DNA from: a virus
Taxonomy: Duplodnaviria > Caudoviricetes
Length of the DNA: 64,000 nucleotides
IMG/VR virus record: IMGVR_UViG_3300028591_000103
Coordinates: 1-64,000 of that record
Strand: one strand, 5' to 3'
Shown one piece after another: positions 2,396-63,258 of this stretch (within the stretch, counting starts at the first letter, position 1; each line of letters starts with the position of its first letter). Both the position numbers and the translations under genes were made by a program. The notes under the pieces were generated by a model. It was not told the origin of the DNA and ran no database searches. It saw only the letters and a program-made list of their open reading frames with translations.

Positions 2396-2908
2396 TTAAT
2401 GGTCATCCGTAATCGTAGGTCCGTTACTGGTGAAATTTTGTAGCGTGATCAACGGTTCGTTATTGGTGTAATTTGGTAGATCTTCATATAATACCAATGT
2501 AGAATCGTCGAATTCAAATTCGACGATATTGATATTATGATCTTCATCGAGATCATGTTCAATCGTTGTAAAGTTTACCAATACCGGATCACTGAAACCG
2601 AATTCAACAATATTGATATTGTGATCCGGTTCAAAATCTTTTTCAGTAGTCGTATAATTGACCACTGAGAAATCCCCAAACTCGAACCCTAAGATGTTTA
2701 TATTGTGATCCTCAACATTCTTTTCAGATACAGTATAATCAGCAATAGTTCCTGTTGAATCCCATTGTGTCAATGTAACGACATGATCAATATACCAAGC
2801 TTTTAACCATTCACCAGATACATATAATCCTCGGACAGGTTTAATTTGATATCCAGCTTGTGGGTGTAATGTTTTATAAAACTCTATGGTTTTTCGCAAT
2901 TTTGACAT
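2396..2908 (-). CDS. Hypothetical virion protein with three ~28-aa repeats
   Basis: 170 aa; AAGGTGA RBS; DHNINI(L/V)xFxFxD repeat three times. Confidence 0.75.
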   Translation of the reverse strand: MSKLRKTIEFYKTLHPQAGYQIKPVRGLYVSGEWLKAWYIDHVVTLTQWDSTGTIADYTVSEKNVEDHNINILGFEFGDFSVVNYTTTEKDFEPDHNINIVEFGFSDPVLVNFTTIEHDLDEDHNINIVEFEFDDSTLVLYEDLPNYTNNEPLITLQNFTSNGPTITDDH

Positions 2909-2940
2909 ATGCTATTCACCTTCTTTCATATAGCAAATGT

Positions 2941-2952
2941 TACTCATCCGTT
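2941..2952 (-). promoter_or_regulatory. Candidate late promoter AACG-N6-TA
   Basis: AACG GATGAG TA upstream of the gene starting at 2908; resembles the AR9 late consensus AACA-N6-TA. Confidence 0.45.
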
Positions 2953-2975
2953 TTCTTTTTCATAAAAATGGTATA

Positions 2976-2990
2976 TATATAATTAATATG
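2976..2990 (+). promoter_or_regulatory. Candidate phage promoter TATATA-N-TT-N3-ATG
   Basis: Same motif at 18254, 19283 and 63244 (-). Confidence 0.55.
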
Positions 2991-3204
2991 ATATCAGATC
3001 AAATGTGCTTTGTGGCAACTCGTTGTCTAATCCGAGTCCACATGTGTCTCCTCACAAATCCCTTGCATTCGGGTATTGTGTAGCACAAGATTGCTGAGAT
3101 CTGGTATCATATTCACGCAGGATGAGGTCATCAATCACGACAGAATGAAATTATCGAACGGATAATGGAATGATGTTATGGTTGTGACCTTCATCCTTTT
3201 TTTT
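2988..3204 (+). ncRNA. Candidate structured ncRNA (~217 nt), family unknown
   Basis: 13-bp closing stem 2988-3000/3098-3110 with internal helices, then a long hairpin 3119-3197 and a T8 tract; promoter motif directly upstream. Confidence 0.6.
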
Positions 3205-3216
3205 GATTAAAATGAG

Positions 3217-3241
3217 AATGGGGCGCAATGCGCCCCATTCC
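3217..3241 (-). terminator. Intrinsic terminator
   Basis: gaatggggcgc aat gcgccccattc, immediately after the baseplate gene stop. Confidence 0.8.
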
Positions 3242-3243
3242 AC

Positions 3244-6200
3244 TTACAGAATTTCGATCACGATATTGGCATCATCCAATACAAACATTTCCGGAACATA
3301 TCTCTCTAATTCTTTTCGAGGCATATCTTCCAATGTATCCCATTTCTGAACAATCGCTTGATAATCTGCATTCATGTAATTTCCACCCTTAACAGATTTC
3401 TCGTTGGTATACCATCCTTTGAATTTCAGGTAAGCAACATTTGAATGCTCTTCAAGTAATTTGATCAATTGGGAAATGTAGATATTATTGTCCATAGAAA
3501 TTGTATCCAATGGCGTATGGACTGTTGTCAAACGATTGAAGTATGATTTGATAATAGAACGGAGTTCGTTCAATGTATTTGTACGCAACGCAGGATTGTA
3601 CAATTTCACAGCAAACTCGATCTGTACATTCAAATCCGGCCAGAATGTATCCGTCTTCAGATTCTTATCAATGTCTGATACATAAGAATGTGGAAGACCA
3701 TATGTCGCAATTAATTTACAATCCAGATAGTTATTTCCTTCCAGACGTTTGAAGATGACTGGTTCGATTGCTTTGTGAACCTGTGTAAATGCAGACACAA
3801 ATGACTCAAAGAAATCAGATGTCATCAATGTGGATTGAATGAATGGAACCAGTTGAATTTCAATTCCACTATTGACGGATGTCCCTGCAAAACACTCATC
3901 GATCTGACCAGGATAATTCACAATCATATCATACAACGTTTCCCAGTTGACATCACCTTGATATGCCGTCTTGGAAACAATATTCAATTCTTGTGTAAAT
4001 GATTGAACCCATTCTGTATTGAAATCTGGAACATCATCTTGACCGGAATATTGTGAAATCAATGCTAAGAGAATATTGAATTCTGATGATGCTATGATCT
4101 TAATATCATCAAACTTCAATCCAGATTCATCTGTCGTTCCCGTGATGATATGATATGCATACTCTTTTATTGTATACAGATTTCTGACAGCTGGATCAAA
4201 TTTGATCAAATCCATCAATTGATCGTATACATAAATTTGTGTATCCGACGGTTCAACATATTCACCAAAGTCAACGACGCTTCTCATTTCTTTCAATTCT
4301 TGAACGAGTGATATGTCATCAACTTTCCATTGGTCTTGCATACGATATCCAACATAATTTTCTTCATCCTCAAATGATGATTGATGGAATATGTCTTCGG
4401 CAAATACTGGTGAATCTGATTTGAACAGAATCTGAATAATGAATTCTGGCTCCGTTGCATCAACACTGACAGTGCCATTTGGTATTGCAGGAACCCATGA
4501 GCCACCACCATTGTTGATAGAAGCAATATGGATACGATTATCCACATCCACCAGTTTATTCAGCGGATACATATTTGCTTCAAAGCGGATAGAACCATCT
4601 GATTCAATCTGTACAGGTTGCATTTCAACGCGTCCAGTTGACATACCATTCATACGGGATTCCAATACAACACGCAGCATATTTTCATCCAACGGAAGTT
4701 TATCCGATTCCAGATAGAAAATTGCTTCGCCGTTGTTGTCTCCCTGGAATAATGACAAAGGCATGCGATAATATGCAACTGCAGAATCCGATGCAGTCGG
4801 TTTCATATCTGCATACAGAATGATTCCATTATTGCCAACATCATCCAGATTGAAGAGGAACGTTCCATCCGGCTGTTCAACGGGTTCGTATGGTGTGTAA
4901 ACATTTGCAGCATTGAAAATCTTGTATGTAATGAATTCGCCATTATCCAAATAGATATTAAAGATAACGGGAGAATCATAACTTCTTCCAATACGATACA
5001 ACTTTGTTTCACCATATTTTGTCAGAGTCGTTTCGAATGCTTCATATGTGATCATATGCGTAATGCGAGTTGCTGTTTCTTCATTCAATCGCATCTCGTA
5101 ATAACTCTGCATTTCTCTTCTTCCGAATTTAAATGGGGAATCATCTGGTAATGCTGGGAACAGTGTGATGTCCGTGTCACCAGACACTTTTACTTCATAT
5201 CCATTCCATTTACCTTCATTACCCCATACATCATCCGAACCAAAGATGCTTTCGAATCCGGTAATCGGCAACATGACAGTCTTGTAGTCACCGGTTTCAG
5301 GATCAATGTTTGTATGATCTTCAATCCACAAATCCGTCAGAATCCATTTATTTGCACCAACCTGATTTCTAGTTCTAACGCACAGATATGTTTCTTCTGG
5401 ATTGAATGGGAGATATTGATCATCTTCGTTCAAGACAAGAATCGGAATCTGCCTGTTATACAAATCAGATGGTTTGTGGAAATAATTCCACATGACTTCT
5501 GGGAATTTCGGCGGCTCGATATTTGAACGAAGATACTTTACAAAATCAGATCCACCTAACGATTGATTGCTCTGGTTTGGAATAATAACTGTTGACAGGA
5601 CATAATAATCATCCTTGTATGTTCGTTTGATTTGAACATATGCCGGAGTACCATGATAGATGCGAGCAGAATCACGGTATACATCCTGATTATTTTCGTA
5701 TTCAAATTTTGCAGGTATCAATGAAGCGGTTGTCGTTTCATTAATCCATGGATTGAAGTATCCAATTGCAAATGGATCTTTCTGAATTCGAATACCGAAT
5801 GGATTTGCAAATAAATATTTTGCATCAACATTCACAGCAGTCTCCGCAGTTTCAACTTGATCAGAAGCAATCACAACCAACGGCTTTACGGTATATCGAT
5901 TCGCTTCCGGGTTATTATAGATCCAGGCCCAACCAGGAGGAATAATGATTTCATTTTTTGAAATGATATTGTCATTATTCTTGAACAGAATTCGATACGG
6001 GATCGTTGCATGTAATGTATTCGTGCGGAACACATCACCATTATCATCTGTCAATGCCAAGAATCCACTCCAGATTCTTCCCCATGGATCATCACGACGT
6101 TTGAAGAAGAATGGATAAAGAATTCTTTTGAAGAAGAATGTCTTGAACCATTCATAGATGTCATGGTCGGATGAAATCACATTCGCCGTATTGTATGCTT

Positions 6201-7275
6201 CAATGGTTTCTCGACGCGTCGTTTCTATGGTACCGATGTTTGTTCCGGCCATACTTCCAGACATAATAAATGCTGTCTTCTGGACATTTCCGTTATTGGA
6301 GTATTTGTTCGTTGAAGTAATGATCGAAACGGATTCGTCTGTCTTGAATGCGGAGAAATTCGCTGCTTCACCATGACATGTATACACAGTGATTTCAAAT
6401 GATGAATTCATTTGTGGAACAAAGTATCTGTTACCATTTCTCTGGAATACAAATCTGATTGTATTTGGAGAATCCATGATGTAATGTACATATGCTCCTT
6501 GATCCTTTACATCAGAATGCATTGGGAGAATATGATCTCTATCCAGATATTGTGAATTTCCAACACCGTCAATATATTTTACCTCGAATCCGGCAATATG
6601 ATTCTGGCATGTGATAACAGCGTCTGCATTCGGAATACCGTTTGTCATATTATTCACGACGATATGTTTCTGGCGTGTATATTCAGACATCTTCACAAAC
6701 AGGTGCAACCATGTACTGGATGTGCGATACAAAATATACGGATTCTTATTGACCGCAATGAAATTATGCTCATCCATATTTGTATACTGAACATTCCATG
6801 TTGGGTTATCTGTATCTGTGAATTGAATCAATACATCATAATCTAAAGAATAAACGCTGCCATTCTTCAGATTAATTTTCGTATCTTTATCCAGAATGAA
6901 TTCCATCAGATTGTTATCCGGATTTTCCACAGCATTCTTTTTGATATCATCTATCTTCAATTCAAGCATGAAGTTACATGCTGATGGTGTTGCAAAAGAA
7001 TATCCGAGATTGAATATTGCTGCTTCAGCATAAATTGAATCAGATAGTGCTGCTTTTGTGATGAATGATTCATTCAAATAAAATGAAGATGTGAATGCAA
7101 GATTTTCAATGACTTGTGACATGTATTCGCTTACAACAGAAAAGAATCCGCTATTCAATACATTGATCGGAATATCATGGAATACTCGCGGCATCAATAC
7201 GTCAGAAATATACGCTTTGATTTGTGAGTCATCCGAATAGTTATTCAGAATGACATTTGTATCATTTGACGCCAT
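3244..7275 (-). CDS. Baseplate wedge protein (T4 gp6/baseplate J-like)
   Basis: 1343 aa; ESFITKAALSDSIYAEAAIFNLGYSFATPS and GTNIGTIETTRRETIEAYNTANVISSDHD match gp6/J-type motifs; AAGGAGG RBS. Confidence 0.8.
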   Translation of the reverse strand: MASNDTNVILNNYSDDSQIKAYISDVLMPRVFHDIPINVLNSGFFSVVSEYMSQVIENLAFTSSFYLNESFITKAALSDSIYAEAAIFNLGYSFATPSACNFMLELKIDDIKKNAVENPDNNLMEFILDKDTKINLKNGSVYSLDYDVLIQFTDTDNPTWNVQYTNMDEHNFIAVNKNPYILYRTSSTWLHLFVKMSEYTRQKHIVVNNMTNGIPNADAVITCQNHIAGFEVKYIDGVGNSQYLDRDHILPMHSDVKDQGAYVHYIMDSPNTIRFVFQRNGNRYFVPQMNSSFEITVYTCHGEAANFSAFKTDESVSIITSTNKYSNNGNVQKTAFIMSGSMAGTNIGTIETTRRETIEAYNTANVISSDHDIYEWFKTFFFKRILYPFFFKRRDDPWGRIWSGFLALTDDNGDVFRTNTLHATIPYRILFKNNDNIISKNEIIIPPGWAWIYNNPEANRYTVKPLVVIASDQVETAETAVNVDAKYLFANPFGIRIQKDPFAIGYFNPWINETTTASLIPAKFEYENNQDVYRDSARIYHGTPAYVQIKRTYKDDYYVLSTVIIPNQSNQSLGGSDFVKYLRSNIEPPKFPEVMWNYFHKPSDLYNRQIPILVLNEDDQYLPFNPEETYLCVRTRNQVGANKWILTDLWIEDHTNIDPETGDYKTVMLPITGFESIFGSDDVWGNEGKWNGYEVKVSGDTDITLFPALPDDSPFKFGRREMQSYYEMRLNEETATRITHMITYEAFETTLTKYGETKLYRIGRSYDSPVIFNIYLDNGEFITYKIFNAANVYTPYEPVEQPDGTFLFNLDDVGNNGIILYADMKPTASDSAVAYYRMPLSLFQGDNNGEAIFYLESDKLPLDENMLRVVLESRMNGMSTGRVEMQPVQIESDGSIRFEANMYPLNKLVDVDNRIHIASINNGGGSWVPAIPNGTVSVDATEPEFIIQILFKSDSPVFAEDIFHQSSFEDEENYVGYRMQDQWKVDDISLVQELKEMRSVVDFGEYVEPSDTQIYVYDQLMDLIKFDPAVRNLYTIKEYAYHIITGTTDESGLKFDDIKIIASSEFNILLALISQYSGQDDVPDFNTEWVQSFTQELNIVSKTAYQGDVNWETLYDMIVNYPGQIDECFAGTSVNSGIEIQLVPFIQSTLMTSDFFESFVSAFTQVHKAIEPVIFKRLEGNNYLDCKLIATYGLPHSYVSDIDKNLKTDTFWPDLNVQIEFAVKLYNPALRTNTLNELRSIIKSYFNRLTTVHTPLDTISMDNNIYISQLIKLLEEHSNVAYLKFKGWYTNEKSVKGGNYMNADYQAIVQKWDTLEDMPRKELERYVPEMFVLDDANIVIEIL

Positions 7276-18253: not shown

Positions 18254-18268
18254 TATATATTTTATATG
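18254..18268 (+). promoter_or_regulatory. Candidate phage promoter TATATA-N-TT-N3-ATG
   Basis: TATATA T TT TAT ATG just after the terminator. Confidence 0.55.
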
Positions 18269-18573
18269 TAGAAAGGAGTTCGATATCGTTCAGAAATGAA
18301 GTGAATCACTTATGACGAATCAAACACAAATATTGGCCGCGTCGGATTACAGCGACGCGACCAACAATGTGTCGGTCATTATGACCGATCCGTATGAGAT
18401 GTTGCATTCGTACTTCGAGAGAGTATTGAATCCATCCATACATTCACAAAAGATCTTATGCGTGCCGATGATTCTGAACAGATGAGTCGGTTCGTACGAT
18501 AAGATCCACCTATGTATGTATCATTGATGATGGGCCCGAACCATCAATGGGTATCAATGATACATACATTTTT
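18266..18573 (+). ncRNA. Candidate structured ncRNA (~310 nt), family unknown
   Basis: Five consecutive hairpins, long-range pairings, and a terminal 17-bp stem followed by a T tract. Confidence 0.6.
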
Positions 18574-63243: not shown

Positions 63244-63258
63244 CATATTAATTATATA
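63244..63258 (-). promoter_or_regulatory. Candidate phage promoter TATATA-N-TT-N3-ATG
   Basis: TATATAATTAATATG, identical 15-mer to 2976-2990. Confidence 0.55.

Follow-up and report, generated by a model that had tools for sequence, protein, structure and literature searches.

Positions 2990–3204 on the plus strand of the window (the opening 64 kb of an IMG/VR record that is 151.6 kb long, comes from an uncultured jumbo phage and has an estimated completeness of ∼56%) are, with a probability that we put at about 0.9, a real and conserved non-coding RNA gene. As judged from its sequence signals, on which the start, the end and the term 'early' are all predictions, the element is a promoter-to-terminator unit and thus a putative stand-alone gene for an RNA of ∼215 nt. 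A first-pass annotation had proposed an independent early transcription unit at this place, and the AR9-type promoter, the RNA polymerase genes of the phage, the unit's own terminator and compensatory changes among relatives all argue for that proposal.

A predicted early unit between two tail-region genes

The unit occupies a 335-nt gap (2909–3243) between two tail-region genes on the minus strand and, as originally annotated, runs opposite to both: a 170-aa ORF upstream (2396–2908), which found no relatives when used as bait, and a 1343-aa ORF downstream (3244–7275; phrog_18960, no Pfam domain), which converges on the RNA. The GC-rich hairpin at 3215–3241, outside the RNA, is the minus-strand terminator of the convergent 1343-aa gene and forms the downstream edge of the cassette; relatives keep it whether or not they have the RNA. 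Cultured relatives of the 1343-aa protein, at 23–25% identity, are confined to phages AR9, PBS1, Goe21, Internexus and phiR1-37 and Staphylococcus phage AH12, with AR9, PBS1 and phiR1-37 the nearest. RNA polymerase beta- and beta′-like genes are encoded in the record, and the phage is an uncultured AR9-like giant (jumbo) phage of the rumen group.

In public data, a contig of 246,039 bp encodes a protein 99% identical to the 1343-aa one (P0001); this contig is probably a near-complete genome of the window phage. Also there, beyond the loci compared below, are ∼25 further close homologs (P0002–P0027) and homologs of about 1470 aa. One copy of the locus, RNA included (L111, CAMJFV010000006.1), comes from a contig of 23.6 kb assigned to a MAG labelled 'uncultured Bacteroidales'; the phage's ribosome-binding sites, strong and of the GGAGG type, are more in keeping with a Firmicutes-type host, so the bin is probably not host evidence. 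Elsewhere in the group, a block of small genes at ∼204,900–217,400 of genome G005 (loci L067) has protein identities of 88–100% to G007 and 75–92% to G000, compared with only ∼55–65% for the remainder of these genomes. The block is absent from G001 and looks like a recently exchanged module.

The early promoters of AR9, which are used by its virion RNA polymerase, have the consensus AAATATATATTAT-(6N)-G+1 (Lavysh et al. 2017, PMC5312081), an annotated example being TTTTCAAATATATATTAT-aagaat-G. At the RNA gene, core and start together span 2971–2990 (+), with GTATATATATAAT at 2971–2983, the 6-nt spacer TAATAT and G2990, so that the core agrees with AR9 at 10 of 13 positions, with exact spacing and a G at +1. 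The virion polymerase of AR9 has been reported to be sensitive to single deviations from the consensus (PMC5312081); the T-to-A change at core position 11 is common to all five copies of the promoter word in the window phage. An upstream CTTTTTCATA element at 2955–2964 (+), comparable to TTTTCAAATATATATTAT of AR9, directly adjoins the core in the other early promoters of the phage and is displaced, by ∼9 nt, only at the RNA gene. Relative to the phage's own strict consensus, the RNA promoter therefore has its upstream TTTTCATA displaced, and its initial transcribed bases differ as well. The AR9 rule (13-mer, 6 N, G+1) places the predicted start at G2990 and not at A2988, which moves the start of the unit first drawn at 2988–3204 and leaves its end standing.

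The promoter word itself, TATATAATTAATATG at 2976–2990, had been recognized in the first-pass annotation. This 15-mer occurs in five exact copies in the 151.6-kb record, the 20-mer at 2972–2991 is identical at three other sites there, and allowing up to two mismatches gives four matches in the window against 0.29 expected. The other exact copies (G000 103659 (+), 143708 (−) and 145289 (−), and window 63258 (−)) each have TTTTTCATATA and a terminator upstream, and Shine–Dalgarno-led genes follow all four at a distance. The frame from the ATG of the word stops after 4–14 codons at three of these four copies; at 63258 it runs for 77 codons, a Shine–Dalgarno-led ORF further down being the likelier gene. 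Because frames from its ATG do not open the downstream genes, we read the word as a promoter rather than a start codon. Behind the copies at 103659 and 145289 come first micro-ORFs of 18 residues, paralogous to each other (MTNVVIITVPVDTEIICE and MSEIVRIPIPVDVEIICE), and then a structured leader. Relatives have CATATATATTAT-TACTAT-G and similar promoters at their RNA genes, and no sigma-70-like promoter was found at the RNA gene. These signals suggest that the RNA is probably transcribed by the phage virion RNA polymerase at the very start of infection.

A family of related RNAs and their common fold

Related loci were fetched from IMG/VR, JGI metagenomes and GTDB genomes with the 1343-aa protein as anchor. 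The RNA cassette (promoter, structured RNA and U-run) is present in six of them (L007, L008, L019, L009, L030 and L111), whereas some twenty other related loci are without it; L031 holds a fragment of the RNA that is cut by the contig end. Besides this fragment, the full homologs comprise five distinct sequences and one 98% copy. The cassette sits just before the GC hairpin ending the 1343-aa gene in every locus that has it. With the window included, the seven full sequences are 56–98% identical in pairwise comparison and the RNAs ∼215–275 nt long; the window copy, only 56–64% identical to its homologs, is the most divergent member. Over the RNA-carrying range the neighbouring protein is 53–67% identical.

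The covariance model R1, which describes the 5′ domain, was trained on six rows, the window copy among them, and gives that copy 62.6 bits (E ∼1e-13). A second model (R2), too narrow in being built only from the two close sequences L008 and L019, finds the window copy weakly but at the right coordinates (17.9 bits, E 0.07). All three family words are present in the window copy: AGAUUGC after helix P2, RUCU(A/G)A in loop L3b and GUGU after P3. Whole-record model searches returned exactly one copy per RNA-carrying genome and none in G001, G002 and G004, which are related and 96–100% complete. An exact scan of IMG/VR for the core pattern returned only three known contigs, and neither the window copy nor L008 showed DNA similarity to any of 50,697 phage records. 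The 'first' orphan RNA of the earlier annotation, at 18254–18573 of the window behind a promoter word with two mismatches (TATATATTTTATATG at 18254), was not matched by R1 and is therefore not a paralog of the 2990–3204 RNA.

In a tree of the neighbouring protein, all RNA-carrying loci fall within one nine-member clade (support 100) that also contains an RNA-less sister pair (L006 and L038), for which the simplest history would be one gain and one loss of the RNA. From this distribution it follows that the RNA gene is accessory or optional, moron-like, yet vertically inherited across substantial divergence. In L007, L008, L019 and L009 the RNA directly follows a co-directional gene of ∼1180–1200 aa, with no terminator between the two. 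The window copy is the only member without a co-directional gene upstream; its upstream neighbour differs and the junction with the 1343-aa gene is unchanged. L041, which is without the RNA, has a different structured cassette of 132 nt at the same site (L041:10394–10525, minus strand of the locus), which folds into three hairpins (MFE −40.7; z ∼ −6.5 relative to mono-shuffles). Identical C-GGACAA-G loops cap two of these and resemble the GGACA/GUACA tips of the RNA family; small RNA cassettes may have a hot spot here.

The plus strand of the unit has a minimum free energy of −74.7 kcal/mol, compared with −51.9 ± 4.2 for 200 dinucleotide shuffles (z = −5.46, 0/200 as good), the reverse strand being weaker (−65.4, z = −4.29). 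The sense strand is 10–28 kcal/mol more stable than its complement and has 5–21 G-U pairs. Stability, G-U pairs and U-run together place the RNA on the plus strand.

The fold consists of a 5′ domain of 119 nt, a linker of 10 nt and a 3′ domain of 78 nt, and each helix drawn in the first-pass annotation is present in it. The 5′ domain is made up of P1, an internal loop with AGAUUGC on its 3′ side, P2, and a three-way junction of P3/P3b and P4. P1 is the closing stem, in which 2988/2990–3000 pairs with 3098–3108/3110. Its 5′ strand (GAUAUCAGAUC, 2990–3000) begins at the predicted first transcribed base, as P1 does at +1 in all homologs, and 9 of the 11 positions compared covary; its 3′ strand (GAUCUGGUAUC, 3098–3108) includes one U-G wobble, which would be an A-C mismatch on the other strand. 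P2 pairs UGUGCU (3004–3009) with AGCACA (3082–3087) and shows changes on both sides at five of its six positions across homologs, the outermost pair being UA, AU or CG. P3 (3011–3015 with 3038–3042) and P3b (3018–3022 with 3033–3037), the tgtgg..ctcg/cgag..ccaca pairing of the annotation, have 5′ strands spanning 3011–3022 with a CA(A) bulge and 3′ strands spanning 3033–3042. They enclose loop L3b (UUGUCUAAUC, 3023–3032), in which the family word reads GUCUAA (3025–3030). Junction J3/4 (UGUGUCUCCU, 3043–3052) contains the invariant GUGU at 3044–3047. An anti-Shine–Dalgarno word in this junction, CCUCC, was considered and rejected, as it is not conserved (CCAAC in L008, CUCAC in L019). P4 (3053–3080; CACAA..CCC/GGG..UUGUG, 3053–3057 and 3060–3062 with 3071–3073 and 3076–3080) is the variable arm, longest in the window copy and 3–5 bp in relatives. 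Junction J2/1 (AGAUUGCUGA, 3088–3097) carries AGAUUGC at 3088–3094, directly after P2 and invariant in all homologs.

The single-stranded linker (AUAUUCACGC, 3109–3118), whose AUUCA is kept in five of six homologs, leads to the 3′ domain, the long bulged hairpin already described at 3119–3196. Its tip is a C-GAACG-G pentaloop hairpin at 3150–3166 (attatcGAACGgataat), and its base doubles as the terminator stem. The U8 tract at 3197–3204 is the intrinsic terminator tail and marks the predicted 3′ end of the RNA; U6–U10 stands at the matching place in all homologs.

Folded individually, each of the seven full sequences, window included, gives the same architecture of P1, P2, P3–P3b, P4 and 3′ hairpin. 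When the helices of the six distinct full sequences, the window copy among them, were registered by hand from each sequence's own fold, every one of the 160 pair cells proved canonical, with no broken pair. This figure is partly true by construction, the helices having been chosen as helices. Compensatory changes on both sides were found at 21 of 30 helix positions. In controls, column shuffles averaged 115 paired cells (maximum 131 in 1000) and slid partners gave 57–79. The covariation evidence is that different sequences form the same helices at the same places, in a sample of only three independent lineages. MAFFT mis-registers P1 and the 3′ strand of P2, which leaves the R1 alignment with 74.6% paired cells, but even so this alignment beats all 500 shuffles on both paired cells and covariation score. 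In the 3′ domain, six compensatory pairs lie inside the L007 group and one in the L009 group, and the apical parts are conserved in relatives, where stems of 5–6 bp closed by C-G carry the pentaloops GUACA, GUACG, GGACA or GCACA (GAACG in the window). The helices covary freely, and what is invariant is unpaired: AGAUUGC, RUCU(A/G)A, GUGU and the C-GNACR-G tips, all in junctions or loops. Comparison across related phages, which the annotation had suggested as a check, thus finds the fold kept through compensatory changes.

The RNA had been called an orphan, and a search of the whole window against Rfam 15 (4227 models) at gathering thresholds indeed gave no match. At E values up to 10, region 2850–3300 returned mainly terminator-like sRNA models over the 3215–3241 hairpin and a few unrelated low scorers, all far below gathering thresholds, and three relatives gave chance matches only. 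The family fits no catalogued (Rfam) RNA family. ARAGORN found no tRNA or tmRNA in the window. A template-repeat RNA of a DGR, considered for the tail-fibre context, was rejected, since of 2909–3243 only the promoter word recurs in the whole record. A literature search found descriptions of orphan jumbo-phage RNAs and none of the 2990–3204 family.

The annotation had also named a rival conserved feature, a 31-codon leaderless ORF from 2988, and a small-protein gene using this or another short ORF would account for the ATG that overlaps the start, for the 31 open codons behind it and for frames that are open in L008, L019 and L111. However, the frame from the NUG overlapping +1 has 31, 13, 41, 45, 16, 26 and 44 codons in the seven copies and encodes unrelated peptides; it begins with ACG and stops after 13 codons in L007 and stops after 16 in L009. 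Moreover, a frame shift within the region separates L008 from L019, a Shine–Dalgarno sequence is lacking, and the A and U of the ATG would not be transcribed under the AR9 rule. The ORF is not conserved, and we regard a protein product as barely credible.

Possible roles of the RNA

Our preferred reading, which we hold tentatively and at somewhat less than even odds, is a stable early RNA that acts in trans by binding protein. The RNA should be long-lived, since helices close off both of its ends, P1 from +1 and the 3′ hairpin, with its U-tract, at the other. It would act in trans as a folded object that binds a host or phage protein, and its role would be that of a decoy, as the annotation had supposed for a host protein or defence system, or of a sponge or scaffold during host take-over, rather than of an antisense RNA or mRNA. 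The basis for this reading is the combination of freely varying helices, fixed junction and loop letters, locked ends and an optional gene. L3b (RUCU) probably docks on J2/1 (AGAU), which would compact the 5′ domain; the two words form the only loop–loop complementarity found in all six distinct full copies, window included. This pairing is a plausible tertiary contact resting on invariant letters and one G-to-A change, and as both words are otherwise invariant, covariation cannot probe it. A presence/absence screen for a partner protein returned 28 candidate genes and was not discriminating; ten of these, scanned against Pfam, had no RNA-binding or informative domain. GNACR hairpins are not enriched elsewhere in the genomes and do not form a genome-wide operator motif.

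It would be just as possible for the invariant 7-mer of the internal loop to act as a base-pairing seed, or to make a tertiary contact only. Were it a seed, the RNA would be a base-pairing sRNA in which AGAUUGC(A), or perhaps GUCUAA or AUAUUCA, pairs with host mRNA, rRNA or tRNA or with phage mRNA and the rest is scaffold, a possibility that we consider unlikely, if the least so of the alternatives. An invariant, unpaired word of 7–8 nt in a stable, terminator-ended RNA is the usual anatomy of a trans-acting sRNA, and a host-mRNA target has been suggested for misc_4 of the AR9 relative phiR1-37 (PMC4848604). The complement, GCAAUCU, also occurs inside early-type leaders in two genomes (G000 76026 and G007 48521), ∼10 and 28 nt downstream of the promoter starts; these sites precede unrelated genes, however, and may be due to chance. 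Phage gene starts show no enrichment of sites complementary to AGAUUGC: genomes have 0–1 such sites each near them, much as an RNA-less genome does (2). Furthermore, the seed would lie in an internal loop between long helices, probably paired with L3b, and a seed carrier needs neither an elaborate covarying three-way junction nor a 3′ domain.

Slightly less likely still is a narrower version of protein binding, in which the RNA is an early, RNA-only effector of host take-over or counter-defence that titrates a host RNA-binding protein or a component of an RNA-sensing defence. Its compact, nuclease-resistant fold would offer the C-GNACR-G hairpins and the AGAUUGC/RUCUAA core as bait in the first minutes of infection, and the unrelated twin-GGACAA-loop cassette of L041, if so, would solve the same problem in a second way.

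We give similarly low credence to a cis-acting element, either an elaborate terminator or 3′ UTR of the upstream tail gene or an early insulator against antisense transcription into the late 1343-aa gene. In every case the RNA adjoins the 1343-aa gene at that gene's 3′ end, the 3′ hairpin of the RNA acts as a terminator, late read-through from the ∼1180–1200-aa gene of L007, L008, L019 and L009 would carry it as a 3′ UTR, and L041 has an unrelated structured cassette at the same site. However, the window phage has lost the co-directional upstream gene and yet keeps the promoter, the fold and the terminator, which disfavours a role purely as 3′ UTR or terminator; where relatives are without the cassette, the shared GC hairpin suffices, and a terminator needs no covarying three-way junction with invariant junction letters. 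Divergent and without the upstream gene, the window copy sets the RNA gene apart from a simple 3′ UTR or terminator and makes clearer which of its features are core.

A sensor or catalytic RNA is improbable. Such an RNA might be an aptamer that controls the terminator, and hence antisense read-through to the late gene, or an undescribed self-cleaving ribozyme, for which the layout, a terminator placed behind a compact junction whose unpaired letters are invariant, and a precise fold backed by covariation would be appropriate. Against this, no Rfam riboswitch or ribozyme was found at E up to 10 in the window copy and three relatives, inspection of the folds by eye gave no anti-terminator pairing of the P1 3′ strand or linker with the terminator stem, a further hairpin follows immediately, and the conserved apical 3′ domain is unlike an expression platform.

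The least likely readings are the micro-protein and an assembly or packaging RNA that multimerizes on a virion structure as the phi29 pRNA does. The latter is very improbable despite similar gross proportions, a location among tail and baseplate genes and palindromic loops in L009 (GUAC) and L030 (GAUC), since RF00044 gives no match, GAACG in the window loop is no palindrome, loop complementarity shared by all homologs is limited to L3b with J2/1, and complete close relatives without the RNA must still assemble and package, so that it is not essential.

Comparison with known phage RNAs

The window unit and the early units of AR9 have the same promoter architecture (TTTTCA, an AT-rich 13-mer, 6 N and G+1), and both phages have split multisubunit RNA polymerase genes. 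The AR9 units drive protein genes, however, whereas the window unit encodes an RNA from a promoter whose use is predicted; the syntenic place in AR9 holds g211 and no RNA, and the family model finds nothing there.

In phi29 pRNA, a domain I of ∼117 nt closed by its own ends and containing a three-way junction is joined by a 13-nt linker to a 3′ hairpin domain. The window RNA resembles pRNA (RF00044) in being a two-domain early RNA of similar sizes, but it is without conserved complementary ring loops, is optional, and belongs to a jumbo AR9-like phage rather than a phi29-like podophage. The boxB hairpins of lambdoid phages carry GNR(N)A-type pentaloops that bind N proteins. The family tips GUACA, GGACA and GCACA fit G-N-R-N-A, whereas GUACG, seen twice, and GAACG of the window end in G and do not fit; there is moreover no boxA, no N-like gene is known, and the polymerase is phage-encoded. 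GOLLD (RF01998) and ROOL (RF03087), which phages and prophages often carry, are, like the window RNA, intricately folded, phage-borne and recognized by covariation only. They differ in being 500–800 nt long and in having Rfam models, whereas the window family, at ∼215–275 nt, matches none.

Jumbo phages with their own RNA polymerases are known to make a few orphan RNAs, but almost none of these has a supported structure or a known job. The present family offers a defined start and end, a two-domain fold backed by covariation, a few invariant unpaired letters open to mutation and natural relatives that either have or lack the RNA, which makes the function of an RNA in early jumbo-phage infection directly testable. 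Its nearest counterparts are misc_4 of phiR1-37, a stand-alone orphan RNA of ∼297 nt identified by RNA-seq, with function unassigned (PMC4848604), and ncRNA001–004 of PA5oct, orphan jumbo-phage RNAs also identified by RNA-seq (PMC7318152). The family model gives no match in the misc_4 region. All are ORF-free intergenic RNAs of giant phages a few hundred bases in length, and phiR1-37 is the closest relative of AR9. Whereas misc_4 and ncRNA001–004 are known from their expression and without comparative structure, the window RNA, known from sequence alone, has a structure supported by covariation.
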